From contig BOKM01000001.1 of assembly GCA_016860985.1 (NCBI GenBank), positions 984,040-1,048,039 of the forward strand: a DNA stretch of 64,000 nucleotides, written 5' to 3'. The notes under the pieces were generated by a model. It saw only the letters and a list, made by a program, of their open reading frames with translations. It was not told the origin of the DNA and did not search any database. A program made the translations under genes and the position numbers. Of this stretch, positions 1,218 to 18,175 are shown one piece after another. Source of the stretch: Patescibacteria group bacterium. GTDB taxonomy: Bacteria; Patescibacteriota; Dojkabacteria; GCA-002793355. The number at the start of each line of letters is the position of its first letter. The stretch's first letter is position 1.

Positions 1218-1289
1218 GCGGGCGTAGTTCAGCGGTAGAATGTCTGTTTTCCAAACAGAAGATCGCGAGTTCGAATCTCGTCGCCCGCT
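1218..1289 (+). tRNA. tRNA-Gly (anticodon UCC)
   Basis: GCGGGCG-TA-GTTC-AGCGGTA-GAAT-G-TCTGT-TTTCCAA-ACAGA-AGATC-GCGAG-TTCGAAT-CTCGT-CGCCCGC-T. The 7-bp acceptor stem is perfect and the T-loop is canonical. A T-run follows. Confidence 0.9.
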
Positions 1290-1480
1290 TTTTTTATATC
1301 GTGCACAATATATCGTCAACGAGCTATTTCCTTAAAAATATCACTAATTATCGAGACTTCTCCATTGGATTACTTGACAAACTTTTTACCCTGGTTTCTC
1401 TGTTGGAAGAAAATGAAAATTATACATGAACTATAAAAATAGCACTCGAAATTTGCTTATAGGTCTAGATTGCTCTTAAG

Positions 1481-1496
1481 TACTACCATGTAGTAG
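1481..1496. promoter_or_regulatory. Putative repressor operator (inverted repeat TACTAC-N3/4-GTAGTA) upstream of the first ATPase operon
   Basis: TACTACCATGTAGTAG sits between a -35-like TTGCTC (1470-1475) and the start codon at 1534, overlapping a -10-like TAGAAT. It is a variant of the operator found at sites 2-5. Confidence 0.45.
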
Positions 1497-1533
1497 AATA
1501 ACTAATGAACCATAATAGTTATAACCTACTCAA

Positions 1534-3426
1534 TTGATGTCAGAAATATTTAAAAACAAAAAATTACAATACCTTGCACTAGTAGCAATATTTGCTTTGA
1601 TTCTAGAAATCTTGGGAATCTTTCAACTTCACTTGCCAGCAATACTCGAAATACCTATTTATATTTTAGTAATACTAATTATTGGAAGAAAGGTGCTTTT
1701 GGGCGGTGTGCAGTCCTTGTTTAGATTCAAGTTCTCTAATATTAATTTACTTATGACTGTTGCTATTTTAGGAGCTATTTTAATAGGTGAAATCGAAGAA
1801 GCTGCGGTAATAGTTGCGTTGTTTGCCGTAAGTGAAACACTTGAAGACCTTGGTATTGAAAGTAGTCAATCAAAAATTGAAAGCCTTATTAATAAAACTC
1901 CTAAATATGTGACTTTGAAAACAGGCGAGAAAGTATCTATTGATAAAGTTTCTATTGGGGATATGTTCATTGTTAAGCCAGGAGAAACAATTGGATTAGA
2001 TGGTAAGGTTTTGTATGGGGTATCAAGCATTGATGAGTCATCTATAACTGGTGAACCTCTTCCCTCAGAAAAGGTAATTGGCTCAAATGTTTATGCCAGT
2101 ACGATAAATAAAGAAGGATACTTGGAGATTGAGGTAACGAAGTTAGCAGAAGGTAGTGTTGTTCAAAGAATAGTTGAATTAACTTCTATGGCTACTCTAA
2201 ATAAAGCAAGTTATCAAAAAGTGATTGAGAAATTCTCTAAATACTATACCCCTGCTGTTCTATTACTAGCAATTTTAATTGTACTAATTCCAACAGTATT
2301 ATTTAATCAAAGTTTTCTTGAATGGTTTGAGCGTGGTATTACATTGTTACTTATTGCTTGTCCATGTGCATTAGTTATCTCAACTCCTATATCTATTTTT
2401 TCGGCAGTAGGTAATGCATCAACAAAAGGAATAATAATCAAAGGTGGAAGATTTTTAGAGGAGTTGGGCTCGGTTAAAGCAGTTGCATTTGATAAAACAA
2501 GAACATTGACGTTGGGTAAACCTGAAATTAAAGAAGTAATAACTTTCCAAGGAGCATCTAAAGAAGAGGTTTTAGCATGTGCGGCTGGAATGGAAAATCA
2601 TTCGGAACATCCTTTGTCACAGGCTGTAATTCAATATGCAGAAAAAAACAGACTGACTTTACATAAAGTAAAAGATTTTAAGTCAATTACTGGGAAAGGA
2701 ATCTCAGCAGACTGTCTGATATGTAATGTAGGAACACATTTGTTAGGAAATCTTGAGCTGATTATAGAAAACAAAAATGATGTGACTGAAGAAATAAAAG
2801 ATACGCTTAACACTATCCAGTTGCGAGGAGATACGCCTATACTATTAGCTGATAATAACGGTGTAAAAGGAATTATTGTTATTACTGATCAGATAAGACC
2901 AGAAGCTAACAACCTAATTGATAACTTGAATAAACTTGAAGTAACTCCAATTATGTTATCGGGTGACAATACTAAGACTGTTTCCTCTGTTGCAAATTCA
3001 TTACATATAAATGACTACTATGGTGATTTACTACCTGAAAATAAAGTCGAAAAGTTGAAAGAATTACAATCAAAGTATAAGACAGTTGCTATGGTAGGTG
3101 ATGGAGTCAATGATGCTCCTGTACTAGCAACATCAAATATTGGCATAGCTATGGGGGCAGTTGGCTCTGATGTCGCTATTGAATCTGCAGACATAGCTTT
3201 GATGAATGACAATATAGAATTAATTCCCTTTCTTATTAAACTGGGGAAATATACAAAGAGCACGATTCAATTTAATATTGGTCTAGCATTAATTACAAAA
3301 TTGATAGCATTAGTGTTAGCTAGTCTTGGCATTATTGGGCTTAGTTTAGCAATTTTTGCTGACGTTGGAGTTACAATCATAGTAATCCTTTTGAGCTTAA
3401 ATATTTTCAATTTTAATCAAAATTAA
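1534..3426 (+). CDS. P1B-type heavy-metal-translocating P-type ATPase (CadA/ZntA-like, no N-terminal HMA domain)
   Basis: Motifs seen: TM6 IACPCALVISTP (the CPC metal site), DKTRTLT (phosphorylation site, a variant of DKTGT), GDGVNDAP (hinge), TGEP. Eight predicted TM helices. Confidence 0.9.
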   Translation: MMSEIFKNKKLQYLALVAIFALILEILGIFQLHLPAILEIPIYILVILIIGRKVLLGGVQSLFRFKFSNINLLMTVAILGAILIGEIEEAAVIVALFAVSETLEDLGIESSQSKIESLINKTPKYVTLKTGEKVSIDKVSIGDMFIVKPGETIGLDGKVLYGVSSIDESSITGEPLPSEKVIGSNVYASTINKEGYLEIEVTKLAEGSVVQRIVELTSMATLNKASYQKVIEKFSKYYTPAVLLLAILIVLIPTVLFNQSFLEWFERGITLLLIACPCALVISTPISIFSAVGNASTKGIIIKGGRFLEELGSVKAVAFDKTRTLTLGKPEIKEVITFQGASKEEVLACAAGMENHSEHPLSQAVIQYAEKNRLTLHKVKDFKSITGKGISADCLICNVGTHLLGNLELIIENKNDVTEEIKDTLNTIQLRGDTPILLADNNGVKGIIVITDQIRPEANNLIDNLNKLEVTPIMLSGDNTKTVSSVANSLHINDYYGDLLPENKVEKLKELQSKYKTVAMVGDGVNDAPVLATSNIGIAMGAVGSDVAIESADIALMNDNIELIPFLIKLGKYTKSTIQFNIGLALITKLIALVLASLGIIGLSLAIFADVGVTIIVILLSLNIFNFNQN

Positions 3427-3446
3427 TATTATTAATAATAAAAGAA

Positions 3447-3812
3447 ATGATAAGACTAACTGGTGAATTAGAACAATTAGTTTTAAAGATTTTAAAGGAA
3501 GAGAATAAGCCTTTGATACCTGCTGAGGTGCAGAGACTAATTCAGCCGAATAAGAGTCTTGCATATACTACAGTAATGACTGTATTAAAACGATTATATG
3601 AAAAGAAGCTTTTGAAAAGAGAAAAGCATAGTACTGCATTCGCCTATAGCTATGTAAAGTCAGATTCTGGCACATCAGATTTGAAAAATATTTTTGATGG
3701 ACTGTTAACATCTTATGGTGATATTGCCATCTCAAATTTTTTTGATTCAGTAAACACCAAGCCCGAACATAAAGAATTGTTAAAGGAATACTTGAAAAAT
3801 GCAAAGAAATAA
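3447..3812 (+). CDS. BlaI/MecI/CopY-family winged-helix transcriptional repressor (paralogue 1)
   Basis: 121 aa. The signature AYTTVMTVLKRLYEKKLL is the recognition helix of the penicillinase-repressor family. There is no C-terminal CxCx4CxC copper motif. The gene overlaps the downstream M56 peptidase by 14 nt. Confidence 0.85.
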   Translation: MIRLTGELEQLVLKILKEENKPLIPAEVQRLIQPNKSLAYTTVMTVLKRLYEKKLLKREKHSTAFAYSYVKSDSGTSDLKNIFDGLLTSYGDIAISNFFDSVNTKPEHKELLKEYLKNAKK

Positions 3813-4728
3813 TTATAAAAATCATAAAATAGCTTTCAACGTCCTTGTTTATATGTTGTGGAGCATCTATTTTATGACTCTACTATTGGCAACATTCAAG
3901 TTATTATCAGGGATTGCAATGTACAGCGTTCATACATTGGAAGCCATCTCTAATCAGTTACCACTTTATAACGTTATTACGCCATTAGAGTTAATTCTTT
4001 ATTTTATATTTTCCGTCATAGTTTTTAGTCTGTGGATCAAAATATTTAAAGCATCTACCAAATTAGTTAAAGTAATAAAAGAAACTAATCGATTTCTAAA
4101 GAATCATTCCGCGATCTACTCCAATGAGTTAAATGTATATGTAATTGACACTAAAAAATTACTTGCATTTACATCAGGTATACTGAAATTTAAGATATTC
4201 ATCTCAAAGGGTGCAATTAATTCATTAAAAGAAGAAGAGCTCGAAGCAGTTATTCTGCATGAGATGCATCATGTGAGAAGCTTTGATCCTTTAAAAAATA
4301 TTATTAACAATTTTGTAGAGCGGTCAACACTGTGGTTTCCATTAAAAGAACAGCTTTTTCAGAACTATAATACTATCTCAGAACTTTCAGCAGATAAATT
4401 TGCTAGCGACAGTATGAAATCCGAGGATTCTCTTTTAAAGGCCTTAAATAAGCTTCTAAATATTTCAAATCCAACAGCATTTAGCATTGCAACGTTTATC
4501 TCAAAATTAGAACGAATTCCGATATTAACAGGTAATACTATTTTTTCTTTTAAAAGCAATTACTTAGTACTCCTAGTAAGTATTGGGATCATCTCATATC
4601 TTGGAGTATCACTAAATAGTTTTAACCCCATTGATAAATGCGATGATTTCAATCAGTGTGTCAGTTCTCTGTTAACGAAGGATCAGATGTTAGAGTCTGA
4701 CACAGGAATGTCGTGTATTAGTAATTAG
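3799..4728 (+). CDS. BlaR1/MecR1-like M56 family zinc metallopeptidase (signal-transducer type) with a Cys-rich C-terminal tail
   Basis: N-terminal TM helices and a HExxH motif in ILHEMHHVRSF. It lacks a penicillin-binding sensor domain. The C-terminus ends in ...DKCDDFNQCVSSLL...GMSCISN. It is translationally coupled to the BlaI-like gene. Confidence 0.8.
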   Translation: MQRNNYKNHKIAFNVLVYMLWSIYFMTLLLATFKLLSGIAMYSVHTLEAISNQLPLYNVITPLELILYFIFSVIVFSLWIKIFKASTKLVKVIKETNRFLKNHSAIYSNELNVYVIDTKKLLAFTSGILKFKIFISKGAINSLKEEELEAVILHEMHHVRSFDPLKNIINNFVERSTLWFPLKEQLFQNYNTISELSADKFASDSMKSEDSLLKALNKLLNISNPTAFSIATFISKLERIPILTGNTIFSFKSNYLVLLVSIGIISYLGVSLNSFNPIDKCDDFNQCVSSLLTKDQMLESDTGMSCISN

Positions 4729-4789
4729 ATAGGCTTTTTAGGCTGTTCTTAAAATATTCTATTTTTAGGATTGACACATACAATTTAAT

Positions 4790-4806
4790 CTACTACACTG
4801 TAGTAG
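4790..4806. promoter_or_regulatory. Putative operator (CTACTAC-ACT-GTAGTAG, contains a cop-box-like TACAC-TGTA) overlapping the -10 region
   Basis: Perfect 7-nt inverted arms. TTGACA -35 at 4771-4776, 13 nt upstream. Start codon of the downstream operon at 4833. Confidence 0.6.
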
Positions 4807-4832
4807 TTTAAATTGTTAGTATATTCCTTAAG

Positions 4833-5720
4833 ATGAAGAAGAATGAGAAATTACCAATAGATTTTGAGAAAGTTGGTGAAGAGATTGTAAAAAAAGAGCG
4901 AGTAACTCATATTTCAATTAGTACTGAATTATTAATACCTATTTCAATATTTTTTGGCGCAATTATTATCTCGTTATCAATTTTCTTTAGCTTTAGAGGA
5001 TTGAACATATCATCCAACACTAATACAGCGAAAGCTCCTGATGCTACTACAGAGGTGCAACAGCAAGCACAAGCTCCAGATAATCCAACTGTTAGTATAG
5101 ATAAGGTTAAATCATTATTTAATGGCGGCGGAATAAGCTTTGGTAACGAAAATAGTAAGCTCTTATTTGTCGAGTTTTCAGATCCTAGTTGTCCATATTG
5201 TCATATTGCAGGAGGTAAAAATCCAGAACTAAATAAACAAGTTGGAAAACAGTTTGTCTTAAAGGCGGATGGCGGTACGTATGTTGCTCCTGTACCAGAA
5301 ATGAAAAAGTTAGTAGATGAAGGCAAGGCATCATTTGTATGGATCTATACAAATGGCCATGGAAATGGAGAATTGGCAACTGAGTCTCTTTACTGCGCAA
5401 AGGAAAAAGGAAAGTTTTGGGAAGCACATGACTTGTTGATGAGCAATTCAGGATATTCGCTTATTAATGACACAGTTAAAAATGATAGAAGTAAATCACC
5501 AGAACTAGCTAAATTCCTGAGCTCTGTGATAGACAGTTCCTTTATGCAGGGATGTTTAGAAGGTAAAAAGTATAATGCGAAAATTGCTGAAAACCAAAAT
5601 TTGGCTAGAAGCATGGGAGTAAGTGGTACACCAGGATTCTTTGTAAATGAAACTAATTTCGCAGGTGCATACAGTTTTAATGATATGCAAAGTGTTGTAT
5701 CGGAGGCATTGTCTAAATAA
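4833..5720 (+). CDS. Membrane-anchored thioredoxin-fold protein, DsbA-like thiol:disulfide oxidoreductase (CPYC)
   Basis: N-terminal TM anchor. Active-site context VEFSDPSCPYCH matches DsbA/thioredoxin CxxC. First gene after operator 2. Confidence 0.7.
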   Translation: MKKNEKLPIDFEKVGEEIVKKERVTHISISTELLIPISIFFGAIIISLSIFFSFRGLNISSNTNTAKAPDATTEVQQQAQAPDNPTVSIDKVKSLFNGGGISFGNENSKLLFVEFSDPSCPYCHIAGGKNPELNKQVGKQFVLKADGGTYVAPVPEMKKLVDEGKASFVWIYTNGHGNGELATESLYCAKEKGKFWEAHDLLMSNSGYSLINDTVKNDRSKSPELAKFLSSVIDSSFMQGCLEGKKYNAKIAENQNLARSMGVSGTPGFFVNETNFAGAYSFNDMQSVVSEALSK

Positions 5721-5724
5721 TAAA

Positions 5725-6384
5725 ATGGAAAATAATATGAAAGGTTTTGCAATTGGAGTTACTCTTATTTCATTCATTATGCTCTTCGGATTTGTTTATC
5801 TTCTTGGGAAATCTACACCTTCCCAAGAGGATAATGCTTCAATCCTGAGTATTGATAACGATGATTGGGTATATGGTAATAGAGATTCTAAGGTTGTTCT
5901 GGTTGAATATGCTGATTACGAATGTGAAGCATGTGCTGCAGCCTCGCCTATGGTTGAAACTATTAAAGCGGAATATAAGGACAAGATAGCTTTTGTTGTT
6001 AGGTATTTTCCTTTACCTGGTCACCGATATTCAAAACAATCGGCCTATGCAGTAGAATCAGCAGGCAAGCAGGGTAAATACTGGGAAATGAATAAATTAA
6101 TGTTTCAAAATCAAACTGATTGGTCTGGTAACCCTAAGAGTGATGAAATCTTTAGAGGTTATGCACAAGACTTAGGGTTAAATATTGAGCAATTCAATGC
6201 TGATACAAGTTCAGTACAAACAAAAGACAGAGTTGATCATGATTTAAAAAGCGGAAAAGATTTGAACATTCAAGGGACCCCAACTTTTTTCTTGAATGGT
6301 AGAAAAATACCTACACCACGTAATATTGAAGCTTTTAGAAATCTTTTGGATGAAGAAATTAACAAATCAAGCACGATAGAATAA
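5725..6384 (+). CDS. DsbA-like thiol:disulfide oxidoreductase (CEAC), membrane-anchored
   Basis: The start was moved to ATG 5725 (MENNMKGFAIGVTLISFIMLF), just after the upstream stop at 5720. Motif VEYADYECEACAA. 220 aa. Confidence 0.7.
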   Translation: MENNMKGFAIGVTLISFIMLFGFVYLLGKSTPSQEDNASILSIDNDDWVYGNRDSKVVLVEYADYECEACAAASPMVETIKAEYKDKIAFVVRYFPLPGHRYSKQSAYAVESAGKQGKYWEMNKLMFQNQTDWSGNPKSDEIFRGYAQDLGLNIEQFNADTSSVQTKDRVDHDLKSGKDLNIQGTPTFFLNGRKIPTPRNIEAFRNLLDEEINKSSTIE

Positions 6385-6386
6385 AT

Positions 6387-7607
6387 ATGAATATATTTGG
6401 TATAAATACAAACCAAGCTAAAACAATAGACAGTAATTTCGCGTATCTTGATCAGAATAAATATTTTTATTTCGATTCAGCATGTCAAACACTCAGACCG
6501 CAAGTAGTCATACAATCAGAACAAGATTACTATCAAGAATATAATGCTTGTGGACATAGAGTAAAGTATGAATGGGGCAAAACTGTTGATAGCCTTACTG
6601 ATGAGACGAGAGAGCTACTTCTTAAAGCCGTTAACAAAACTTCTAAAGAATATACTGTAGCCTTTTGCTTAAATACTACTCATGGAATCAATACGATTCT
6701 TCATCAATTAAATCCTAATTTATACGATAGGATTGTAACATCTGAAATTGAACATAACTCAGTCTTCTTAAATGCCTTAACATGGAGTAAAAGAAACAAT
6801 AAGAAAAGGATTGTATGTAGTAGGCATGAGGATGGCGGATTGGAATATAAGAAAGAAGATTTGAGTAAAGCAGTTGTACTTGTAAACGAAACTAGCAATA
6901 TCGATGGGAGAAGACTTACTAATATAAATGAATTAGCTAAAGATGTTCACAATGTAGGTGGGATTATCTTACTAGATGGTGCTCAAACATTTGGTCATGA
7001 CATTCATTTCCTAAAAGATATTGATTTCGATGCAATTTTGGGCTCTGGACATAAGATGTATGGACCAAGTATAGGATTTATTATTGTAAAAAAGTCATTA
7101 TTAAAAAATTTAGATAACTACCTGATTGGTGGCGGTACTGTTGAAAATGTAAGATATAATGATTTTGATCTTGTTTCAAATGATGATGAATTATATGCTC
7201 GAATAGAAGCAGGATTACAGAATTTTGCAGGAATAATAGGACTCGGTAGTGCAATAAAATGGAAAAGTGATTTTCGGTATGGAAGTCTTAATGCCACAGA
7301 ATATGAGCAAGAATTGAAAACATATTTACTGCAAGAACTTTTGAAAATAAAATCAATTAATCTACTGAGTTTAAATCCAAGCTCAGTTGTTTCCATATAC
7401 TCCAATAAAATTGATGCACATAAATTAGGTGCGCTGCTTTCTACAAAACAAATAATGTGCAGAACTGGATATTTTTGTTGTCACTATTATTTAAAGGAAC
7501 TCAAACAGTTACCACCACTACTTAGAATTAGTTTAGGGTTAAATAACACAAAAGAACAGATCGATTTTTTGGTTGAGAACTTAGATTTCATTATTAGTAA
7601 ATTTTAA
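6387..7607 (+). CDS. Class V aminotransferase-fold protein, divergent cysteine desulfurase-like (SufS/CsdA family)
   Basis: FDSACQTLRPQ (N-terminal motif), SGHKMYGP (PLP-lysine motif S-G-H-K), and MCRTGYFCC near the C-terminus (RxGxHC-like catalytic Cys loop). 406 aa. Confidence 0.65.
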   Translation: MNIFGINTNQAKTIDSNFAYLDQNKYFYFDSACQTLRPQVVIQSEQDYYQEYNACGHRVKYEWGKTVDSLTDETRELLLKAVNKTSKEYTVAFCLNTTHGINTILHQLNPNLYDRIVTSEIEHNSVFLNALTWSKRNNKKRIVCSRHEDGGLEYKKEDLSKAVVLVNETSNIDGRRLTNINELAKDVHNVGGIILLDGAQTFGHDIHFLKDIDFDAILGSGHKMYGPSIGFIIVKKSLLKNLDNYLIGGGTVENVRYNDFDLVSNDDELYARIEAGLQNFAGIIGLGSAIKWKSDFRYGSLNATEYEQELKTYLLQELLKIKSINLLSLNPSSVVSIYSNKIDAHKLGALLSTKQIMCRTGYFCCHYYLKELKQLPPLLRISLGLNNTKEQIDFLVENLDFIISKF

Positions 7608-7618
7608 AATCCAAAACT

Positions 7619-8659
7619 ATGCTTTGTATAATAATATTCGTACTCTTTCTGCTTTTTTTTCCAATAGGAATGTTTTCAAAAACGTACCGTAATCTTTTTA
7701 AAAAAGCATGGATATGCGCATTCAAAAAAATTACTCTAAAACCGTGTGATGAAGACTTTGGAAGCGAAATTAAAAATCTAATTGTAGGGAAATTGTTTTT
7801 CAGATTTCCCCGAATTGCAAAATTTCTTGATAAAACAATGACTTTCTGGGCTATACTTTTCGTCGTTCTATCTGTTTGGAGCTTGCTTTATACAGCTAAT
7901 GCTGGATTAAACTTGTGGGTCTATGATACATGTAATCCGACAAATGGTGAGTCTTGTTCACTTGGAGGAGAATCATGTGGATTAAATACTGAACAAGCAC
8001 CCAGCATAATTGAAACTCTTTCAAGAGTACCTGAGCGATTTAAAAACTGGCAAGCAAAGGAATACGTTTCAGAAAGTGCTACATACTACAATCCGTATGA
8101 TACCTCGAAATCTGATGCCGTAGAATTTATTGATCCAGGATGTCGATTTTGTAAAAAACTTTGGGGCAACATAAAAGAATCAGGTTTTGAAAACGAGCAT
8201 AATTTAACGTATGTTGTCTACCCTATACCTCAAAAGGATTCTAATTCGGGATACCACTTTCCTCATTCTTATTACATTTCCTCTGTTTTAGAATCAATTA
8301 AATTAAGTCCTCCGCCTGAGATAACTAATTCAAATATTCCAAACGATTGGAGACTATTAGATAAATTGTTTACTGCGCAAGATGATAAATATAAAACAGA
8401 CCTGCAAAACGCAATAAACACGCTTTACACAAGAGAGGAAGTCACATTAATTATTCATGGCTACTTACGAGAATTTGGCTATAGTGATTATCAGATTATT
8501 GAAATTGAAAAATTGGCTAAGTCGGATAAGGTACAGGATAGTTTGAGTAAACAAGCTACGATTGTAACTGATAAAGTTAAGACAGTGAAAATACCAACAA
8601 TTATATTTAATGGAAAGCGTTTTGACAGGGTTGTAGATAGAGAAACTTTATCAAAGTAA
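7619..8659 (+). CDS. Membrane-anchored Cys-rich protein with a DsbA-like CxxC motif
   Basis: N-terminal TMs. CNPTNGESCSLGGESCG. VEFIDPGCRFCKK resembles the DsbA active site VEFFSFFCPHCYQ. Otherwise unassigned. Confidence 0.5.
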   Translation: MLCIIIFVLFLLFFPIGMFSKTYRNLFKKAWICAFKKITLKPCDEDFGSEIKNLIVGKLFFRFPRIAKFLDKTMTFWAILFVVLSVWSLLYTANAGLNLWVYDTCNPTNGESCSLGGESCGLNTEQAPSIIETLSRVPERFKNWQAKEYVSESATYYNPYDTSKSDAVEFIDPGCRFCKKLWGNIKESGFENEHNLTYVVYPIPQKDSNSGYHFPHSYYISSVLESIKLSPPPEITNSNIPNDWRLLDKLFTAQDDKYKTDLQNAINTLYTREEVTLIIHGYLREFGYSDYQIIEIEKLAKSDKVQDSLSKQATIVTDKVKTVKIPTIIFNGKRFDRVVDRETLSK

Positions 8660-8694
8660 TTTTACTAGCCTCTTTGAAAATTTGCCAAAGCATG

Positions 8695-8709
8695 CTACAC
8701 TTGTAGTAG
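8695..8709. promoter_or_regulatory. Putative operator (CTACA-CT-TGTAGTAG, exact cop-box TACAnnTGTA) upstream of the second BlaI-like gene
   Basis: Inverted repeat 25 nt upstream of the start codon at 8734. -35-like TTGCCA at 8682-8687. Confidence 0.55.
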
Positions 8710-8733
8710 TTATTTTATAGTAATTTAATAAGT

Positions 8734-9099
8734 ATGAAATCTTTAGTCCTTGGTGACCTCGAACAAGAAATATTATCAATTATTTGGGCTTCAAAAGAGC
8801 CAATGAATGTTCGAGCTGTACTCGAACAACTTAAAGAAAAGTCGGCATATACAACTGTTATGACAGTGATGACAAGAATGGAGAAAAAAGGTATTCTTAA
8901 ACGAATACCTGATGGTAATTCGTATGTATATACTTATACGGAAGATAGAGAAGAATTTGCGGGTAAACACTTAGGTGAAATTTTTAACTCATTAGTAGAC
9001 ACATATGGAGAGTTGGCAATTTCACAATTTGTCGATTCTATGAAAAGTGATAGCAAAAATGTTAAACTTCTCAAAGACTTTATAAATAAAAATGAATAA
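8734..9099 (+). CDS. BlaI/MecI/CopY-family transcriptional repressor (paralogue 2)
   Basis: 121 aa. AYTTVMTVMTRMEKKGIL. Same length and layout as 3447-3812. Overlaps the next gene by 8 nt. Confidence 0.85.
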   Translation: MKSLVLGDLEQEILSIIWASKEPMNVRAVLEQLKEKSAYTTVMTVMTRMEKKGILKRIPDGNSYVYTYTEDREEFAGKHLGEIFNSLVDTYGELAISQFVDSMKSDSKNVKLLKDFINKNE

Positions 9100-10045
9100 T
9101 ATTTTTAAAAAACAAACAAATCGCCTTTTTATTATTTATTGTATTTCAGGTTTTGCCTATATAACTCTCCTATTGCTTTTATCTATAAGAGCTTTGCCAG
9201 GTTTTTTTATGCAAGTATTGTTTCTTGCTGATGCAATAATTAAAAGTCATTCAGAAATTAGCCCTATTATATTTAGTGATGCATTTATTAAAGCTTTCGT
9301 TTCAGGAGGAATCTCTATGGGTTTGATATTTATTGCAGTAAGAGGAATCTCTAGCTCAACAAAACAGCTAATAATAACCAGCAAATTTTTAAACTCCTTA
9401 AAGATTAAATCTAAAGTTAATATTGTTAATTTAGATGTTACAGATACTTCTGTATTCACTGCTGGAATGATTACACCTAAGGTCTATATTTCCTCAAAGC
9501 TAAAGGACTCATTAACTTCTGAACAGTTAAAGGCGGTTTTGCATCATGAGTTTTCGCATTGCAAAGATCATGACCCATTAAGAGGGTTTATCGTACAACT
9601 CATCAATAACATACTTCCGAAATTTCCTTTTAAGAACAAATTGAAAGATATTTATTTCACATCTGTTGAATTAAAAAGTGATGAACACTCCAAAAATATA
9701 TTAGGAAAGAAAAGACCAATTATAGAAGCCTTATACTCAATTCTGAGTAACGATTTTTCCATGTCAATGCAACCGAATTTAGCACATTTTAGTAATATGC
9801 CCGAAAGAATACCTGTATTAGTTGGAGCAAAAAAGTTTAACTTCAAATTAGTTACTGCTTTATCATCATTCTTTCTATTTGCCTTAGTCAGTTTACCTGT
9901 TTTGGCCTATACAGCAAAATTTTATAACTGTGAACATATTGAAGATTGTATTCAAATATTTGTTAATAATCTGCAAAGCAATTCTTCTGAAAATCTATGC
10001 TCTATGCATTCGATGGATACTCCAACTTCTTGTACATCAAATTAA
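9092..10045 (+). CDS. BlaR1-like M56 family peptidase (paralogue 2) with a Cys-rich C-terminal tail
   Basis: HExxH in VLHHEFSHCKDHDPL. N-terminal TM segments. The C-terminus is FYNCEHIEDCIQIF...LCSMHSMDTPTSCTSN. Confidence 0.8.
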   Translation: MNNIFKKQTNRLFIIYCISGFAYITLLLLLSIRALPGFFMQVLFLADAIIKSHSEISPIIFSDAFIKAFVSGGISMGLIFIAVRGISSSTKQLIITSKFLNSLKIKSKVNIVNLDVTDTSVFTAGMITPKVYISSKLKDSLTSEQLKAVLHHEFSHCKDHDPLRGFIVQLINNILPKFPFKNKLKDIYFTSVELKSDEHSKNILGKKRPIIEALYSILSNDFSMSMQPNLAHFSNMPERIPVLVGAKKFNFKLVTALSSFFLFALVSLPVLAYTAKFYNCEHIEDCIQIFVNNLQSNSSENLCSMHSMDTPTSCTSN

Positions 10046-10075
10046 TTCTAAAAGTTCTTGACAATTAATCATTAA

Positions 10076-10095
10076 GCTACTACACTTGTAGTAGC
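10076..10095. promoter_or_regulatory. Putative operator (GCTACTACA-CT-TGTAGTAGC, perfect 9-nt arms, cop-box TACAnnTGTA)
   Basis: TTGACA -35 at 10058-10063. The operator overlaps the -10 position. Start codon at 10117. Confidence 0.65.
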
Positions 10096-10116
10096 TTAAT
10101 TTGTTATGAACTATGA

Positions 10117-11706
10117 ATGAAAAGTAAATCGAAAAAATCAGAACCTCAATTACAAGAATGCAGTTACTCTGTAAAGGGAATGCATTGTGCAAGTTGTGAA
10201 GTCCTCATTGAAAAAAAACTTATAAAACAAACTAATATAGAAGGTGTAGATGCCTCTACTTCAGACAACAAAGTAATAATAGAATATAAAGGAGAGAAGC
10301 CTACTCTAGATCAATTGAATAAATTGTTTAAAGCTGAAGGCTATAGTTTTGATGAAAATGACAGTAAAGATGCAGTTCAAGATGATGTTGAAAAGTTGTT
10401 TCAAGTTGAAAATGGTAAGTTAACTTTTAGCACACGCAAACTCAACTCTATTCTCTTTATTATCGTGGGGGTTGCGGGTATTTTCTTAATCTATAAACTA
10501 TTTGAACGATTTGGATTAGCTTCTGCCGTCTCTGTAAACGCAACATCTGCATTACCTGCCTTTTTCTTTTTTGGTATTGTGGCTGGCTTTTCGAGCTGTG
10601 CAGCTCTTGTTGGTGGAATTGTTCTGTCAATGTCAAAGCAGTGGTATGAGCTTCACTCTACGAGCAATTCTTTTTCAGAAAAACTACAGCCACATCTATT
10701 GTTTAATATCGGGAGAATTGTTTCATTTGCAATACTTGGAGGTGTTTTAGGTGCGATTGGAAGTATTTTTACAATATCACCTTTATTTACAGCTATTGTC
10801 GCAATTCTTGTCTCTATAATGATGGTATTGTTAGGTTTGCAAATGCTCGGGATTAAGGCTTTTCAACGATTTCAGTTTAGAATGCCTAAAGTGTTTTCAA
10901 GGTACATTGCTGATGAATCCAATTTTGCAGGTAAATACATGCCTATGATTATGGGTGCACTTACATTCTTTCTTCCTTGTGGGTTCACCATTACGGCTCA
11001 AGGGTTAGCTATGGTATCAGGAGATCCTATTCGTGGAGCACTAATAATGTCGTTGTTTGCTTTAGGAACTTCTCCAATGCTTTTATTCATTGGAATGTCT
11101 AGTACAAAGATGTATGAAAAAGCTCATATTGCTGAAAATTTTATGAAGTTAGTTGGTATTCTCGTTATTTTTTTCGGACTTTCAACTGTCAATATGCAAT
11201 TAGTTGCCCTCGGACTTCCAAATTTAAATGACATTAGTTTCGGACAAAGTAGTATTAACCAGAGTAATAACATAGGCTCTTCAAATAGCACTCTTCCAGA
11301 AATTGTAAATGGAAAGCAAATCGTTAAGATGGAGGCAAGTGCTTCAGGTTATTCGCCTAATAATATTAAAGTAAGAGTTAATGTCCCTGTTCGATGGGAA
11401 ATCAATGACACTGGAACTTCTGGCTGTACTAACGCCATTATCTCTAAAGGTCTTTTTGATGGTCAGATAGATCTTGAAACAGGAAAAGTTGCAGTTAAAG
11501 AGTTTACTCCAACAAAAGTCGGGAAATATAGATTTAGCTGTTGGATGGGAATGGTAACAGGGGTTATTGAAGTTGTGGATGATACCGGTAAAACAGTAAG
11601 TGATTCGGGAACAACTAATAATCAGGTTGTTGTTGAGTCAGGTGCTAAAGGGTGCGGTTGTGGTGGAGGTGGTGGAAATTCATGCGGAGGTACAAAAAAC
11701 AACTAA
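10117..11706 (+). CDS. Three-part fusion protein: N-terminal HMA metal-binding domain, polytopic permease with conserved intramembrane Cys (CcdA/DsbD- or TauE-like), C-terminal cupredoxin-like domain
   Basis: GMHCASC (HMA MxCxxC). About 8 TM helices with FSSCAALVGG and FFLPCGF. The C-terminal soluble domain YSPNNIKVRVNVPVRWE...SGCTNAII...FSCWMGMVTG is paralogous to the standalone protein 13557-13994. A Gly/Cys-rich tail CGCGGGGGNSCGG follows. Confidence 0.7.
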   Translation: MKSKSKKSEPQLQECSYSVKGMHCASCEVLIEKKLIKQTNIEGVDASTSDNKVIIEYKGEKPTLDQLNKLFKAEGYSFDENDSKDAVQDDVEKLFQVENGKLTFSTRKLNSILFIIVGVAGIFLIYKLFERFGLASAVSVNATSALPAFFFFGIVAGFSSCAALVGGIVLSMSKQWYELHSTSNSFSEKLQPHLLFNIGRIVSFAILGGVLGAIGSIFTISPLFTAIVAILVSIMMVLLGLQMLGIKAFQRFQFRMPKVFSRYIADESNFAGKYMPMIMGALTFFLPCGFTITAQGLAMVSGDPIRGALIMSLFALGTSPMLLFIGMSSTKMYEKAHIAENFMKLVGILVIFFGLSTVNMQLVALGLPNLNDISFGQSSINQSNNIGSSNSTLPEIVNGKQIVKMEASASGYSPNNIKVRVNVPVRWEINDTGTSGCTNAIISKGLFDGQIDLETGKVAVKEFTPTKVGKYRFSCWMGMVTGVIEVVDDTGKTVSDSGTTNNQVVVESGAKGCGCGGGGGNSCGGTKNN

Positions 11707-11719
11707 TACAATTACATAA

Positions 11720-12697
11720 ATGATTCTAAGAATTAGTCCAACAAAACTTATTGTTCAAATATTTGTTACTCAATCATTAGTACTAGTATTTCTTGGAATA
11801 ACAAATATTATTGATCACCTAACGCTTTTTTATAATACCTTCACCCATTCTCAATTTATTTCTTTTGGTGTTTTAAGCTTAATTGTTAGTTTGGTAGTAC
11901 TTATTGTTTCTATTGCATACGGTCTCTCTTTGTGGCTCAATACTGTTTATGAGATAAGCAATGGAAAGCTCACGATAAAGAAGGGACTTTTAAACAGACA
12001 GGTATTAGAAATTAAATTAAGCAATATTGTACAAACTGAAAGTAATTTACCATTTTTAGGAAAGTTCTTTAATTATGGAGATATTTCATTTAAAACTGAA
12101 AATGGTGGGAAAACAATCAGGATTAAATCAATAACAGATGTACTAGATGTTCAAAAGTTTCTCCAAAACCAAAAAATGATTAATAGCAGTAGGCTTCCAA
12201 AAGTTACTAAAGAATCTATAGTTGAAATCATCAAAAACGGAGAGACAGATGAAATTGAATTCAAATCTAGTTTGAGATGGGATTTATCACTTCTAAAAGT
12301 AAATAAAGTATTAGAGAAATCAGTATTTAAGACAATAGTTGGATTTCTCAATGGCAATGGTGGATTGTTAATTGTTGGTGTTAGTGACACAGGGGAACTC
12401 TTAGGCTTAAATAATGACTATTTAAGCCTTCCAAAGAAAAATATTGATGGTTTCGAAAATCATATGACTCAACTCTTCGGCGAATGTATAGGGATTGAAC
12501 ATAGGCACTTAATAAAAATATTTCACTTCGTTATTGAGAATAAAGAAGTTGCGGTTGTGAGAATTAAGCCAAGTAAAAATCCAATTTATTTAAGGAATGG
12601 AGAAAATGAGGATTTTTTCTTGCGTACAGGAAATACTACCAGTTTACTTTCTGGGCATGAGATCTTTAATTATCTTAGATATCGTAACAAAATATGA
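11720..12697 (+). CDS. Membrane-anchored bPH_2 (DUF304/YdbT-like) domain protein fused to an AlbA_2/Schlafen-like putative DNA-binding domain
   Basis: Two N-terminal TMs. SNGKLTIKKGLLNRQVLEIKLSNIVQ...YGDISFKTENG matches bacterial PH domains. The C-terminus EIEFKSSLRWDL...KTIVGFLNGNGGLLIVGVSDTGELLG matches the AlbA_2 (PF04326) signature. Confidence 0.6.
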   Translation: MILRISPTKLIVQIFVTQSLVLVFLGITNIIDHLTLFYNTFTHSQFISFGVLSLIVSLVVLIVSIAYGLSLWLNTVYEISNGKLTIKKGLLNRQVLEIKLSNIVQTESNLPFLGKFFNYGDISFKTENGGKTIRIKSITDVLDVQKFLQNQKMINSSRLPKVTKESIVEIIKNGETDEIEFKSSLRWDLSLLKVNKVLEKSVFKTIVGFLNGNGGLLIVGVSDTGELLGLNNDYLSLPKKNIDGFENHMTQLFGECIGIEHRHLIKIFHFVIENKEVAVVRIKPSKNPIYLRNGENEDFFLRTGNTTSLLSGHEIFNYLRYRNKI

Positions 12698-13485
12698 AAA
12701 ATTTATTAACCAAATTACCCTTAGTTATTTCGTTGTTATTTATACTCGCTACATTGTTAGCTGTACTTGCTCCTGTATTTGCTTATTTAAAGCTAAACTT
12801 TTTATCTGACCCAATTTATTGGTTTTATCAGTGGTTTTGCCATCAAAGACCTTGGCGTTCATATCATATGTTTGATTATCAATATGCACTGGATGCGAGA
12901 ATGATTACTTTGTTTTTAGGTCTGGGTGTCGGTGGCTTATTAACATCAGTAAAAAAGTTAAAACCATTAAAATGGAAATATGTAATGATTGTTATCATAA
13001 TAATGATTGTTCCTATGGGAATTGATGGCATAACTCAATTAATTGCAGAGTTAAGTGTTATAAACAAAGTAACACAGTTGCCATTTTATGAGAGTACAAA
13101 TTTTATCAGAAGTATTACTGGTATTTTTGCAGGTGTTGGAATTTCAGTAGCATTATTTCCATATATTAATAATGGCGAATCTGTAGGTTTTAACAACGAT
13201 TATCTTAAAACAATACTTCTTGGAATGCTTATAACCTTTTTATTTATTCCTCTTTTTGTGTATCTATGGTTTGTATCCTCTACTAAATATACACCATCTT
13301 CAATGTTTATTGATTCATTACAGAGATTTCCAGGATACAATTATGAAGTAACAACTGGTGGCGGTCACTCAACCATCAATAGGATCATCAAAGAACCTAC
13401 AGATCTCTATAAGCAAAGAGAAAAGTATTATCAGAATAAGAATACTGGGCTATGCAGTGGTAGTACAAAAGAAAATTGTAATTAA
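12694..13485 (+). CDS. Polytopic membrane protein, DUF2085-like (CHQRP motif)
   Basis: Multiple TM helices. WFYQWFCHQRPWRSYHMF resembles the conserved CHQ-R-P-x-RSF motif of DUF2085. Low certainty. Confidence 0.45.
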   Translation: MKNLLTKLPLVISLLFILATLLAVLAPVFAYLKLNFLSDPIYWFYQWFCHQRPWRSYHMFDYQYALDARMITLFLGLGVGGLLTSVKKLKPLKWKYVMIVIIIMIVPMGIDGITQLIAELSVINKVTQLPFYESTNFIRSITGIFAGVGISVALFPYINNGESVGFNNDYLKTILLGMLITFLFIPLFVYLWFVSSTKYTPSSMFIDSLQRFPGYNYEVTTGGGHSTINRIIKEPTDLYKQREKYYQNKNTGLCSGSTKENCN

Positions 13486-13494
13486 TAATTGACA

Positions 13495-13516
13495 TACTAC
13501 TACATGTGTAGTAGTA
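13495..13516. promoter_or_regulatory. Putative operator (TACTACTACA-TG-TGTAGTAGTA, perfect 10-nt arms, cop-box TACAnnTGTA)
   Basis: TTGACA -35 at 13489-13494, immediately upstream. Start codon of the downstream operon at 13557. Confidence 0.65.
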
Positions 13517-13556
13517 TAACTAAGAATGCAGTAGATTAAATTTTAAATAACAAATA

Positions 13557-13994
13557 ATGTCTAAAAAGAATAAAAATATACAAGAAACTACCACAATTAA
13601 TGGAACAGGCGTATTGATTGGGATTGCTGTAATAGTTGTGATAGGTTTTGTCTTTCTTATTGGATCTGGAAATAATAATTCTGCAGATGTAAAAGGAGCA
13701 AGCTCAAGCGTTGTAAGTACTTCGGGAGATAAACAAGTTGTTGAAGTGACCGTTAGTGGCGGTTACTCACCTCGTACAATTAACGCCAAAGCAGGAGTTC
13801 CAACAATTATTCGCATGAAATCAGATGGTGCATATGGTTGTGAAAGAGCTTTTAGAATACCAAGTTTAGGAATATCAAAGACATTACCAGCAAGTGGTAA
13901 TACTGATATTGAAATTACTTCCCAAAATGCAGGTACCAGCTTAAGAGGTACGTGTAGTATGGGAATGTATAGTTTTGTAATTAATTTTAATTAA
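13557..13994 (+). CDS. Membrane-anchored cupredoxin-like metal-binding domain protein
   Basis: N-terminal TM. YSPRTINAKAGVPTIIRMKSDGAYGCERAF...GTCSMGMYSF is paralogous to the C-terminal domain of 10117-11706 (C...C-x-MGM). Confidence 0.55.
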   Translation: MSKKNKNIQETTTINGTGVLIGIAVIVVIGFVFLIGSGNNNSADVKGASSSVVSTSGDKQVVEVTVSGGYSPRTINAKAGVPTIIRMKSDGAYGCERAFRIPSLGISKTLPASGNTDIEITSQNAGTSLRGTCSMGMYSFVINFN

Positions 13995-14002
13995 TAATAT
14001 AT

Positions 14003-14227
14003 ATGAAATACCAAATAAATATTTCAGGCATGCACTGTTCAGGATGTAAGAACTTAATAACCATGTCTCTAGAAGACATTGGGCTAGAAGAAGTTGTTGT
14101 TGATCCTGAAAAGAATATTGCTACTTTCGTGACCGCTAATAAGGCTGAAGAGGTAGAAAAAGATCTTCAAGAAGTATTTAAAGAGTTAACAGACTATAAA
14201 TACTCTAATCTTAATATTATTGCTTAA
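14003..14227 (+). CDS. copZ: Heavy-metal-associated domain copper chaperone (CopZ-like)
   Basis: 74 aa. GMHCSGCKNLI (MxCxxC). Ferredoxin-like HMA length. Confidence 0.8.
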   Translation: MKYQINISGMHCSGCKNLITMSLEDIGLEEVVVDPEKNIATFVTANKAEEVEKDLQEVFKELTDYKYSNLNIIA

Positions 14228-14244
14228 TTTTTATTTAAATAACT

Positions 14245-14805: not shown

Positions 14806-14829
14806 TTAACCTACTATCATATAAATAAC

Positions 14830-17142: not shown

Positions 17143-17161
17143 TTTCTTAAATAATTAATGT

Positions 17162-17719: not shown

Positions 17720-17730
17720 CGTTAAAAGTA

Positions 17731-18158: not shown

Positions 18159-18175
18159 AATCTCGTCGCCCGCTT
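18159..18175 (+). repeat. Exact 17-nt direct repeat of the 3' end of tRNA-Gly (AATCTCGTCGCCCGCTT; first copy at 1274-1290). Putative att-type boundary.
   Basis: The 17-mer is identical, in the same orientation, and sits 16.9 kb downstream of the tRNA. The geometry matches an element inserted at a tRNA 3' end. Confidence 0.65.

Follow-up and report, generated by a model that had tools for sequence, protein, structure and literature searches.

The window, a 64,000-nucleotide stretch of a Patescibacteria group bacterium contig, carries a 16.9 kb island of low GC content (0.31–0.35, against ~0.40 outside) integrated at tRNA-Gly in a small, CPR-like genome. Two copies of a 17-nt direct repeat are its proposed boundaries, and between them lie two repressor–protease gene pairs together with the genes that they may control:

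1274..1290, + strand: left copy of the 17-nt direct repeat (AATCTCGTCGCCCGCTT), which forms the 3′ terminus of tRNA-Gly(tcc) 1217-1290 and is the proposed left island boundary
1534..3426, + strand: P1B-2-like (Zn/Cd/Pb-type) ATPase lacking an N-terminal HMA domain; it opens the operon bearing pair 1
3447..3812, + strand: repressor 1 (rep1), BlaI family, 121 aa, no Cys; putative scissile bond N97|F98 (nt 3735-3740)
3799..4728, + strand: protease 1 (prot1), 309 aa; HEMHH 154-158, E195, D199, R239; last TM helix 252-274
4833..8659, + strand: circuit A cargo, comprising the next four genes
4833-5720, + strand: exported DsbA-like thioredoxin-fold protein
5725/5737-6384 (start uncertain), + strand: second exported DsbA-like thioredoxin-fold protein
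6387-7607, + strand: SufS-like cysteine desulfurase
7619-8659, + strand: 346-aa membrane protein with a CxxC motif
8734..9099, + strand: repressor 2 (rep2), BlaI family, 121 aa, no Cys; Q98|F99 (nt 9025-9030) aligned with the BlaI cleavage site N101|F102
9092..10045, + strand: protease 2 (prot2), 317 aa; HEFSH 152-156, E193, D197, R239; last TM helix 251-274
10117-11706, + strand: HMA-DsbD_2-cupredoxin fusion, first of three genes (10117..13485)
11720-12697, + strand: bPH_2/AlbA_2 gene, absent from other copies of the module
12694-13485, + strand: DUF2085 membrane protein, third of the three genes
13557..17719, + strand: copper cargo, comprising the next five genes
13557-13994, + strand: cupredoxin-like protein
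14003-14227, + strand: CopZ-like HMA protein
14245-14805, + strand: DUF305 protein
14830-17142, + strand: CopA-type P1B-1 ATPase
17162-17719, + strand: FtrD-like protein
18159..18175, + strand: right copy of the direct repeat; proposed right island boundary

The gene content agrees with an earlier, sequence-only reading in which the regulon was one of metal homeostasis, and we propose that the segment is a mobile copper and zinc/cadmium resistance island controlled by two BlaI/BlaR1-type pairs. The ATPase at 1534..3426 scored 462.7 against TIGR01512 (Cd family; cut-off 313.5) and 357.6 against TIGR01511 (Cu; cut-off 397), and has a CPC motif, a Lys in TM5 and ADVG in TM6. Both cargo modules are syntenic elsewhere: the gene order of circuit A is repeated in loci L004-L007, L091 and L092, and that of the copper cargo in L001-L003, L014 and L020. 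C-terminal tails containing Cys are also present on several further membrane proteins that the island encodes.

A search for TACTAC-N2-6-GTAGTA returned four exact matches, compared with none in 100 shuffles, and a fifth site with one mismatch. These account for the five operator sites of the earlier reading:

1481..1495, no strand: operator A1, TACTAC-CAT-GTAGTA (N3), in the spacer between the hexamers of a promoter-like site (TTGCTC-18-TAGAAT) that precedes the Zn/Cd-type ATPase
4791..4805, no strand: operator A2, TACTAC-ACT-GTAGTA (N3); it overlaps the promoter-like site TTGACA-17-TACACT at its -10 region
8693..8708, no strand: operator B1, (G)CTAC-ACTT-GTAGTA (N4, one mismatch), which overlaps the TTGAAA-16-TACACT site in front of rep2
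10078..10093, no strand: operator B2, TACTAC-ACTT-GTAGTA (N4), overlapping TTGACA-17-TACACT
13498..13513, no strand: operator B3, TACTAC-ATGT-GTAGTA (N4), between TTGACA and TAGTAT hexamers

All five palindromes fall in promoter-like sites of the sigma-70 consensus and together they cover the whole island; no exact copy was found outside it. The position of B1 implies autoregulation of rep2. An N3 site of the A1 type occupies the same place in L004, L006, L090 and L092. The difference in spacing, N3 or N4, may insulate the two circuits from each other. The recognition-helix sequence AYTTVMTV and the half-site are nevertheless common to rep1 and rep2, and cross-talk between the circuits is therefore possible.

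Both repressors match Pfam Penicillinase_R above its cut-off (rep1 1e-15, rep2 1.7e-24), and their best solved relatives are Rv1846c, BlaI and MecI, Rv1846c being the top solved match to rep2 (E 8e-11). The two are 34% identical (E 3e-21), and the proteases 29% identical over 231 aa with the tail included (E 1e-22). The open reading frames, the profile matches and these identities thus agree with the earlier description of two paralogous pairs. Within each pair the genes overlap, by 14 nt in pair 1 (prot1 ATG at 3799, rep1 stop at 3810-3812) and by 8 nt in pair 2 (ATGAATAA). The overlaps bear out part of the claim that the pairs are translationally coupled; the coupling itself is probable from this arrangement. 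As had been noted, neither 121-residue repressor contains the CxCx4CxC site. Both sequences have zero Cys, and the repressors therefore cannot bind metal in the CopY manner.

The closest solved structure to the proteases is BlaR1, and the profile match extends over BlaR1 residues 104-323 (TM3, protease domain and TM4; E 2e-7). No transpeptidase or penicillin-binding domain was matched in either protease in profile searches, in line with the original observation that a beta-lactam-sensing domain is missing. The assignment to M56 fared less well. Pfam Peptidase_M56 scored 28.8 and 29.9 bits, slightly below the 31-bit cut-off, and Peptidase_M48 scored 45.3 and 32.0, above its cut-off of 20.3; the M56 label accordingly rests on BlaR1 profile and fold matches and on gene context, and not on the Pfam threshold. 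Models predict three-helix membrane gluzincins with a cytoplasmic catalytic domain. The catalytic H, E, H, E, D and R do not vary across 92-105 homologues, and HExxH and ExxxD are present in 150/150 family representatives; the counterparts in BlaR1 are H201/E202/H205/E242/D246/R294 (PMC9834060). In both proteases F233, in an autocleavage-like loop modelled at low confidence, aligns with the BlaR1 autocleavage residue F284.

The last membrane helix is followed by a tail of 35-40 residues, acidic, with C-x5-C and one or two distal Cys. In prot1 it spans residues 275-309 (nt 4621-4725; ...KCDDFNQC...MSCISN) and contains C281, C287 and C306 and no His. In prot2 it spans residues 278-317 (nt 9923-10042; ...NCEHIEDC...LCSMH...SCTSN) and contains C280-x-H282-x3-C286, C303-S-M-H306 and C314. 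Both sequences read as first quoted. Because the tail follows a helix homologous to BlaR1 TM4, it lies outside the cell, where BlaR1 carries its sensor domain. Cysteines at such a site could become oxidised, and DsbA-like oxidases are among the products of the island, which counts against metal binding by the tail.

Conservation was assessed over the 148 family representatives in which a last membrane helix was detectable. A tail was present in 128, with at least two Cys in 114, at least three in 99 and C-x5-C in 72; it was absent in 20, and 14 more had a single Cys. The commonest Cys count was three. Tails are net acidic (385 K+R against 573 D+E), and Cys makes up 6.6% of their residues compared with 0.9% of the remaining protein. 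Conservation of the tail matches that of the protease domain, and C281 and C287, at least 90% conserved, are the only near-invariant extracytoplasmic positions. The Cys-rich tail is thus conserved across a large family, as the earlier reading required, although P0008, a close relative of prot2, lacks both distal Cys; the last 15-17 tail residues have low confidence in the models. A BlaI-like gene adjoins the protease gene in 74/80 genome loci, and 72 of 79 adjacent repressors retain the Phe that stands at P1′ in the BlaI cleavage site. A P1B ATPase lies within 10 kb in 14 of 43 long loci. Proteases of the pair 1 type (His-less tail, N3 operators) always have Zn/Cd-type ATPase and thiol-oxidoreductase genes alongside, a context retained with N3 spacing at protease identities as low as 35%. 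Those of the pair 2 type (C-x-H-x3-C tail) are accompanied by CopA, CopZ, DUF305 and cupredoxin genes; here N4 operators, or in the wider module B context N4 or N5 spacing, are found.

We consider it fairly likely that two paralogous switches run the island by regulated proteolysis, in the manner of BlaI/BlaR1 (PetR/PetP), and that the tail is their sensor. Winged-helix repressor dimers would occupy the palindromes and block the overlapping promoter-like sites, circuit A comprising the Zn/Cd-type ATPase operon with pair 1 and the DsbA/SufS operon, and circuit B comprising pair 2 itself and the HMA-DsbD-cupredoxin and cupredoxin-CopZ-DUF305-CopA operons. Tail thiolates would bind metal or undergo metal-driven oxidation, and the signal, passed through the last TM helix, would dislodge the autoinhibitory loop (x|F233) from the active site of the protease. 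Cleavage of the repressor at (N/Q)|F, within the dimerisation helix, would then derepress the operons. Pair 2 is likely to respond to copper, and pair 1 to Zn/Cd/Pb or thiol stress.

The tail might instead be a purely thiol–disulfide sensor without a metal site, its C-x5-C disulfide being opened or closed by copper or another oxidant, or according to how the DsbA/DsbD-like machinery stands, and thereby gating the protease. Its place in an oxidising compartment would suit this, as would the thiol-redox genes under both circuits (two DsbA-like proteins and the CxxC membrane protein in A, the HMA-DsbD_2 fusion in B) and the DsbA-like, DsbD-like or VKOR genes that recur beside relatives; the second C-x5-C cysteine is modelled at a helix start, a geometry common to redox motifs. 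We regard this as unlikely, however: the commonest number of Cys is odd, the copper-linked tails pair Cys with His and Met (C-x-H-x3-C, CSMH), and metal pumps and chaperones dominate the regulon. Redox and metal sensing by the tail are not mutually exclusive. It is also rather improbable that the tail Cys are structural or form a docking site, with the signal arriving through the short outer loop, the membrane helices or an island partner (cupredoxin-like, DUF2085 or HMA-DsbD). Loop Met ligands have been proposed for PetP, in which no C-terminal sensing domain is described, some family members lack the tail, and Cys-bearing tails occur on other island proteins; but the outer loop (residues ~52-61) has neither a conserved residue nor Met in either protease, and the constraint on the tail, with its near-invariant cysteines, equals that on the catalytic domain.

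Direct, CopY-style sensing by the repressors, with the protease merely clearing released or damaged repressor, seems very improbable. The circuit B operators resemble cop boxes (TACA-NN-TGTA), and both repressors match TIGR02698 CopY_TcrY weakly; yet the scores, 24.6 and 46, are far from the cut-off of 122, the proteins have only 1-2 His besides their lack of Cys, most family repressors adjoining protease genes are likewise Cys-free, and the protease gene is linked to the repressor gene in nearly all loci. CopY and TcrY of Firmicutes share the winged-helix family, the operator type and copA/copZ-type targets with the present system, but CopY itself senses Cu(I) through its C-terminal CxCx4CxC, without a protease.

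With BlaI/BlaR1 and MecI/MecR1 of Staphylococcus aureus and Bacillus licheniformis the pairs share the catalytic HExxH, ExxxD and Arg, a Phe-bearing autocleavage-type loop, the repressor Phe at the N101|F102 cut position, TACA/TGTA dyad operators and adjacent autoregulated genes. They differ in having the Cys-rich tail in place of a transpeptidase-fold sensor, three predicted TM helices rather than four, and metal homeostasis rather than beta-lactamase or PBP2a as the regulon.

Metal-responsive proteolytic derepression by an M56-type peptidase had been thought uncharacterised, but PetR/PetP of Synechocystis sp. PCC 6803 (Garcia-Canas et al. 2021) is such a switch: PetR, of the BlaI/CopY family, is degraded by the M48/M56 BlaR-like protease PetP only with copper (10.1101/2020.07.31.226407). 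PetR, like rep1 and rep2, lacks the CopY Cys motif, and the overlapping downstream gene encodes a membrane protease of similar layout, whose HExxH domain is cytoplasmic and flanked by TM helices and which has no penicillin-binding domain. Copper derepresses the cupredoxin gene petE, and circuit B also covers cupredoxin-like genes. By its published description, however, PetP has four TM helices, the last at 256-278, and no sensing tail, with conserved outer-loop Met53/Met58 as proposed ligands. Since PetP, as described, stops close to its last TM helix and still responds to copper, copper sensing in this family can do without a Cys tail. The PetR site is GAC-N5-GTC, unlike TACTAC-N3/4-GTAGTA, and the target is a four-gene electron-carrier regulon, the plastocyanin/cytochrome c6 switch (PMC10141476), rather than resistance pumps.

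A copper-dependent BlaI/BlaR-type proteolytic switch is thus already known, as is the prevalence of sensor-less BlaR proteins: only ~6% of BlaR homologues have a transpeptidase domain, and sensor-less, atypical BlaIR is the commonest family architecture (PMC13492132). The apparently new elements are the Cys tail as a candidate sensor, the control of metal-resistance genes and the separation of circuits by operator spacing. Atypical BlaIR systems (M. tuberculosis Rv1846c/Rv1845c, M. abscessus BlaIR, P. aeruginosa PvmSR, C. difficile CenIR) likewise combine a BlaI-like repressor with an M56-type protease that has no penicillin-binding domain, but they have no known signal, and the genes under their control belong to metabolism, virulence or the cell envelope. 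In the pairs described here, by contrast, tail chemistry and regulon point to a specific class of ligand, and predict a ligand for a large family of sensor-less BlaI/BlaR-type switches.

The two gene pairs consist of four open reading frames, arranged as the sequence-only reading had described them:

3447 to 3812, rep1, BlaI-family repressor of 121 aa
3799 to 4728, prot1, BlaR1-like membrane protease of 309 aa
8734 to 9099, rep2, BlaI-family repressor of 121 aa
9092 to 10045, prot2, BlaR1-like membrane protease of 317 aa

The genes overlap by 14 nt in pair 1 and by 8 nt in pair 2. The pairs are paralogous, as proposed: the repressors are 34% identical and the proteases 29% identical over 231 residues. 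The alignment of prot1 with prot2 extends through the tails, the Cys-rich stretches that follow the last transmembrane helix, and the cysteines of both proteins are in register. A repressor gene lies next to the protease gene at 74 of 80 related genome loci (one genome per species).

Both repressors match Pfam PF03965 (Penicillinase_R) over profile positions 1-115, with scores of 58.5 bits (1e-15) for rep1 and 86.8 bits (1.7e-24) for rep2 against a cut-off of 22.6, and their relatives in the PDB are Rv1846c, BlaI and MecI. Neither contains any Cys, in agreement with the earlier statement that they lack a CxCx4CxC site. Membership of the CopY/TcrY family (TIGR02698, cut-off 121.95 bits) was ruled out, as the two repressors score only 24.6 and 46.0 bits and the C-terminal CxCx4CxC motif is missing. 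The repressors encoded beside related proteases are also Cys-free in the majority of cases. Since most repressors of the family have no Cys and the CopY_TcrY scores are far under the cut-off, direct metal sensing by the repressors in the manner of CopY is unlikely. The repressors do look cleavable. BlaR1 cuts S. aureus BlaI between N101 and F102 (PMC9834060), and these residues align with N97 and F98 of rep1 and with Q98 and F99 of rep2, the predicted cleavage sites. The P1′ Phe, located in the C-terminal helix, is kept in 72 of 79 repressors encoded beside related proteases, where it is preceded mostly by His, Gln, Ser, Ala or Asn.

The assignment of the proteases to Peptidase_M56 held in part. 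Their scores with Pfam PF05569 (28.8 and 29.9 bits) are just short of the gathering score of 31, but both the match to a BlaR1 profile and a BlaR1-like predicted fold support it; the Peptidase_M48 cut-off of 20.3 bits, in contrast, is exceeded by both (45.3 and 32.0). Precomputed Pfam annotation places homologues in both the M48 and the M56 families, and PGAP labels distant plasmid relatives 'M56 family metallopeptidase'. In a profile search the best solved relative was S. aureus BlaR1, residues 104-323 (TM3, metalloprotease domain and TM4; E 2e-7), which was also the top structural match of the predicted protease models. The HExxH motif starts at residue 154 in prot1 and 152 in prot2, and is followed by ExxxD in 150 of 150 family representatives. 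Residues H152/E153/H156/E193/D197/R239 (prot2 numbering) are invariant across the family alignments and correspond to the catalytic set H201/E202/H205/E242/D246/R294 of BlaR1 (PMC9834060), in a core that sits between transmembrane helices. A loop at 225-238, modelled with low confidence, holds a nearly invariant F233, which aligns with F284 of BlaR1, the P1′ residue of its autocleavage site.

The absence of a beta-lactam sensor was borne out. The proteases stop 35-40 residues past the last transmembrane helix, profile searches of prot1 and prot2 detected no penicillin-binding domain (PF00905), and the blaR1_generic profile gave no match over a sensor. Canonical BlaR1/MecR1 membership was thus ruled out, the C-terminal extracellular transpeptidase-fold sensor being missing. 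The predicted models consist of two long N-terminal helices, a cytoplasmic domain, a single last transmembrane helix at approximately 251-274, and the tail. Lys and Arg are abundant at the N-terminus and where the catalytic domain begins, and the tails are net acidic. From homology and hydropathy, we infer that the tail lies outside the cell, at the place occupied by the sensor in BlaR1, because one helix, homologous to BlaR1 TM4, separates it from a domain that needs access to a DNA-binding protein.

Word-indexed protein searches returned 10 and 7 relatives, and the family became visible only when 1.84 billion cluster representatives were searched exhaustively with a profile: 209 clusters fell below 1e-30 and 4171 below 1e-10. 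Tail statistics were taken from the best 150 representatives. The last membrane helix was detectable in 148, and 128 of these 148 have a tail of at least 15 residues. At least two Cys are present in 114 tails and at least three in 99; the first two are spaced by five residues in 70 of the 114. The motif C-x5-C occurs in 72 tails and C-x-H-x3-C in 44. Cys makes up 6.6% of tail residues, compared with 0.9% elsewhere in the protein. The tail is not universal, as 20 of the 148 members are tail-less and a further 14 have a single Cys.

Non-conserved Cys positions among homologues had been named beforehand as grounds for rejecting a sensory role; the positions are in fact kept. Among the few relatives from the word-indexed searches, tails of the prot1 group already read K-C-x-D-F-x-Q-C...S-C-I down to 43% identity, and those of the prot2 group C-x-H-[IL]-x-x-C...L-C-x-M-H...S-C down to 46-48% identity, with the exception of one prot2-group member that lacks the two distal Cys. 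Within orthologue groups, conservation of the tail equals that of the catalytic domain (0.86 versus 0.84, and 0.60 versus 0.61), and the N-terminal membrane region is less conserved than the tail. C281 and C287 are nearly invariant in an alignment of 92 sequences, and no conserved residue was found in the short outer loop of the family alignment. The earlier interpretation of pair architecture, topology and conservation is largely sound.

The operator palindrome TACTAC-N2-6-GTAGTA has four exact matches in the window and none in 100 shuffles, and a fifth copy has one mismatch, which accounts for the five operator sites counted previously. All five are predicted binding sites of the palindromic TACA/TGTA type expected for the BlaI/MecI/CopY family. 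Each precedes a gene and overlaps a promoter-like site (sigma-70 consensus), and together they define two circuits. With N3 or N4 denoting the number of bases between the half-sites, they are:

1481, circuit A (rep1 and prot1), N3, before a Zn/Cd-type ATPase gene and then rep1 and prot1
4791, circuit A, N3, before two DsbA-like genes, a SufS-like gene and a gene for a 346-aa membrane protein
8693, circuit B (rep2 and prot2), N4, before rep2 and prot2
10078, circuit B, N4, before an HMA-DsbD_2-cupredoxin fusion gene
13498, circuit B, N4, before genes for cupredoxin, CopZ, DUF305 and CopA and an FtrD-like gene

A perfect TTGACA box is present in three of these promoter-like sites (4771, 10058 and 13489); further promoter-like sites are at 8674 and, as TTGCTC-18-TAGAAT, at 1468. 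No exact operator copy was found in the window outside the low-GC metal-resistance island that carries both circuits, the sole other match being at 59259, with one mismatch and N2 spacing. Unlike the extended palindrome, the plain cop-box (TACANNTGTA) is not significant by itself: it gave 3 matches against 1.35 expected, and 17 of 100 shuffles did as well. Related palindromes occur beside repressor-protease pairs in many phyla.

With P1B ATPases, CopZ and cupredoxins under these operators, the proposed metal-homeostasis regulon is supported. The circuit A ATPase has no HMA domain, passes the Cd-family model and falls under the Cu-family cut-off; it carries a TM5 Lys and a TM6 ADVG, which we take to be P1B-2 features, as in ZntA. 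The recognition-helix sequence AYTTVMTV and the half-site are common to rep1 and rep2, so any insulation of the circuits must come from the one-base difference in operator spacing. Such insulation may exist, and cross-talk is possible.

The SufS-like cysteine desulfurase (6387-7607, +) is co-operonic with exported DsbA-like proteins (4833-6384) and a CxxC membrane protein (7619-8659), an uncommon combination under a metal-type operator; that it might serve sulfide or persulfide chemistry for metal detoxification is speculation. The HMA-DsbD-cupredoxin fusion (10117-11706) and the DUF2085 membrane protein (12694-13485) also end in Cys-bearing tails (...GCGCGGGGGNSCGGTKNN and ...GLCSGSTKENCN, respectively), so that Cys tails at the C-terminus may serve metal handling more generally on the island.

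The island is bracketed, at approximately 1291-18175, by a 17-nt direct repeat of the tRNA-Gly(tcc) 3′ end (1274-1290 and 18159-18175). Its GC content is 0.31-0.35, compared with about 0.40 outside, and it looks like an integrated genomic island; no integrase was seen among the ORFs examined inside it. A second GC dip (0.33-0.36) with reversed GC skew, at 50001-53100 (-) beside tRNA-Pro and tRNA-Leu (53556-53730), holds genes for a 576-aa HATPase_c_3 protein and for a neighbour of 349 aa; this stretch, too, may have been acquired. Elsewhere in the window are a RuBisCO large-subunit homologue (37154-38716, -; Pfam 3.9e-96), which fits a Patescibacteria (CPR) host, and an ORF (24963-26417, +) with an uncommon fusion of a D-Ala-D-Ala ligase C-terminal (ATP-grasp) domain to a SET domain. 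The window's own proteins are present in public collections without names.

Each circuit also occurs separately, as a module. Module B (rep2, prot2, HMA-DsbD-cupredoxin, DUF2085, cupredoxin, CopZ, DUF305 and CopA) is found alone in a Candidatus Dojkabacteria MAG and in a MAG labelled Saccharibacteria, with three and two N4 operators, respectively, at positions shared with the window. CopA and DUF305 are 98-99% identical between the window (8734-17719) and these two MAGs (loci L014 and L020), and the protease of the module is 79-81% identical. This suggests recent horizontal transfer of module B, with the sensor gene changing faster or being replaced. The window copy also has a bPH_2 and Schlafen/AlbA_2 gene (11720-12697, +) that separates the HMA-DsbD fusion gene from the DUF2085 gene. 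It is missing from otherwise collinear copies of module B (L001-L003 and L020) and is therefore probably a later insertion.

Module A (the HMA-less ATPase, rep1, prot1, two DsbA-like genes, a SufS-like gene and a protein of approximately 340 aa) was found in four further lineages, with protease identities of 62%, 44%, 36% and 35%. All four have a His-less tail, N3 operators at the same two positions, and an ATPase 65-84% identical to the Zn/Cd-type pump of the window. In two of them (62% and 44%) the module adjoins Replic_Relax, ArdA or sortase genes, which suggests that it is part of a mobile element. Two lineages with C-x-H-x3-C tails and 33% identity to prot2 have N4 or N5 operators, and downstream genes for HMA-DsbD-cupredoxin, cupredoxin, CopZ and CopA, or for DsbA, HMA-DsbD and VKOR. 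Among 43 related loci of at least 15 kb, a P1B ATPase gene lies within 10 kb in 14, an HMA-DsbD-like gene in 11 and a cupredoxin-like gene in 11. The plasmid collection contained no relatives of the tails, and yielded only distant Firmicutes 'M56 family metallopeptidase' genes with 25-28% identity. Some related MAGs carry the label 'uncultured Gammaproteobacteria', which looks unreliable.

Further circuits are seen in other genomes. Locus L029 (contig CAYSZW010000044.1) contains a third paralogous repressor-protease pair with a different tail Cys pattern (...MMCIGNQSCEIRC...), and N5 operators upstream of the repressor and downstream of the protease. Locus L028 of the same MAG has 98-100% protein identity to window positions 4833-9099 and 91% over the part of prot2 that it holds; a genome closely related to that of the window may thus run three circuits, with N3, N4 and N5 operators. 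A related copper locus, L095 (JACPHO010000002.1, GCA_016188545.1; features at 6408-6764 and 11195), has an extra orphan BlaI-like repressor, and its operators differ in spacing, with N5 flanking the pair and N4 in front of CopA, which hints at layered control.

The feature is real: a BlaIR/PetRP-type switch with a conserved Cys-rich candidate micro-sensor on mobile metal-resistance modules, whose paralogous circuits are distinguished by the chemistry of their tails and the spacing of their operators. If the system works like BlaR1 (PMC9834060) and PetP, repressor dimers would block the promoters until the last transmembrane helix relays a change in the external tail; the autoinhibitory loop would then leave the active site, and the protease would cut the repressor between Asn or Gln and Phe, allowing expression of the operons. 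The most likely trigger is metal coordination by the tail thiolates, perhaps assisted by His and Met in the copper-linked tails and by carboxylates in the His-less tails. The main rival is a metal-driven or Dsb-dependent thiol-disulfide change, which may also combine with metal coordination. Purely structural disulfides are disfavoured, since the modal number of tail Cys is three, an odd number. Copper is well supported as the signal of circuit B by its cargo genes; for circuit A, Zn/Cd/Pb or thiol stress is a less certain assignment.

A fuller proposal, which we hold tentatively and consider somewhat more apt to fail than to stand, is that the tails are direct extracytoplasmic metal receptors of a large, mostly CPR-borne group of single-polypeptide 'metal-gated proteases'. 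In this proposal tail chemistry would set selectivity, with C-x-H-x3-C and CSMH-type ligands directed to copper and the acidic His-less C-x-D-x3-C to Zn/Cd/Pb, and nothing but the spacing of identical half-sites (N3, N4, N5) would insulate paralogous circuits within a cell. If true, no earlier BlaIR-type system would have had a defined ligand site for anything but an antibiotic, and none would have controlled metal resistance.

Two, possibly three, paralogous circuits in one genome are apparently separated by operator spacing. The modules move from one CPR lineage to another on a tRNA-integrated island, a mobility of interest for metal resistance among uncultured bacteria and for compact biosensor parts.

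BlaI/BlaR-type regulated proteolysis is now regarded as a widespread signalling scheme. Sensor-less BlaR proteins are well known from M. tuberculosis, M. abscessus, P. aeruginosa (PvmSR) and C. difficile (CenIR). A transpeptidase domain is present in only about 6% of M56 proteins, approximately 94% of sensors having no penicillin-binding domain, and a 2026 survey called the ligands of this remainder unpredictable (PMC13492132). Here the ligand class is predictable, as two independent lines point to metals: a conserved tail of Cys with His or Met in the place of the sensor, and a complete regulon, delimited by the operators, that consists of metal pumps, chaperones and thiol oxidoreductases. 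The system gives a tractable starting point, with predictive value, for the study of a large family of orphan sensors. In the one library searched, we found no literature on Cys-rich tails or BlaIR control of metal-resistance genes, and nothing relevant on a Cys-rich M56/BlaI metal sensor or on BlaI systems with copper in Patescibacteria.

The earlier claim that metal-responsive derepression by an M56-type protease had not been characterised is refuted by PetR/PetP of Synechocystis, a BlaI/CopY-family factor and an M48/M56 BlaR-like protease encoded by overlapping genes (10.1101/2020.07.31.226407; commentary PMC7896320). PetR is degraded only when both PetP and copper are present (10.1101/2020.07.31.226407). 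The means by which copper activates PetP-type proteases had not been settled in 2021, and the Cys tail is a concrete candidate site. PetP was compared by its description rather than by sequence. No sensing tail is described for it, whereas prot1 and prot2 have Cys tails. In PetP the conserved methionines M53 and M58, in the outer loop that precedes the last of the N-terminal transmembrane helices, are proposed as ligands; the corresponding loops at approximately 52-61, NQLPLYNVIT in prot1 and SHSEISPIIF in prot2, contain no Met and are unconserved in the family. The PetR site is GAC-N5-GTC, whereas the island operators are TACTAC-N3/4-GTAGTA. PetRP is not tied to copper homeostasis genes, according to a 2023 review (PMC10141476). 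Its regulon is petE/petJ, the plastocyanin/cytochrome c6 switch, whereas the targets on the island are resistance genes, although circuit B shares with the petE target of PetRP the presence of cupredoxin-like genes.
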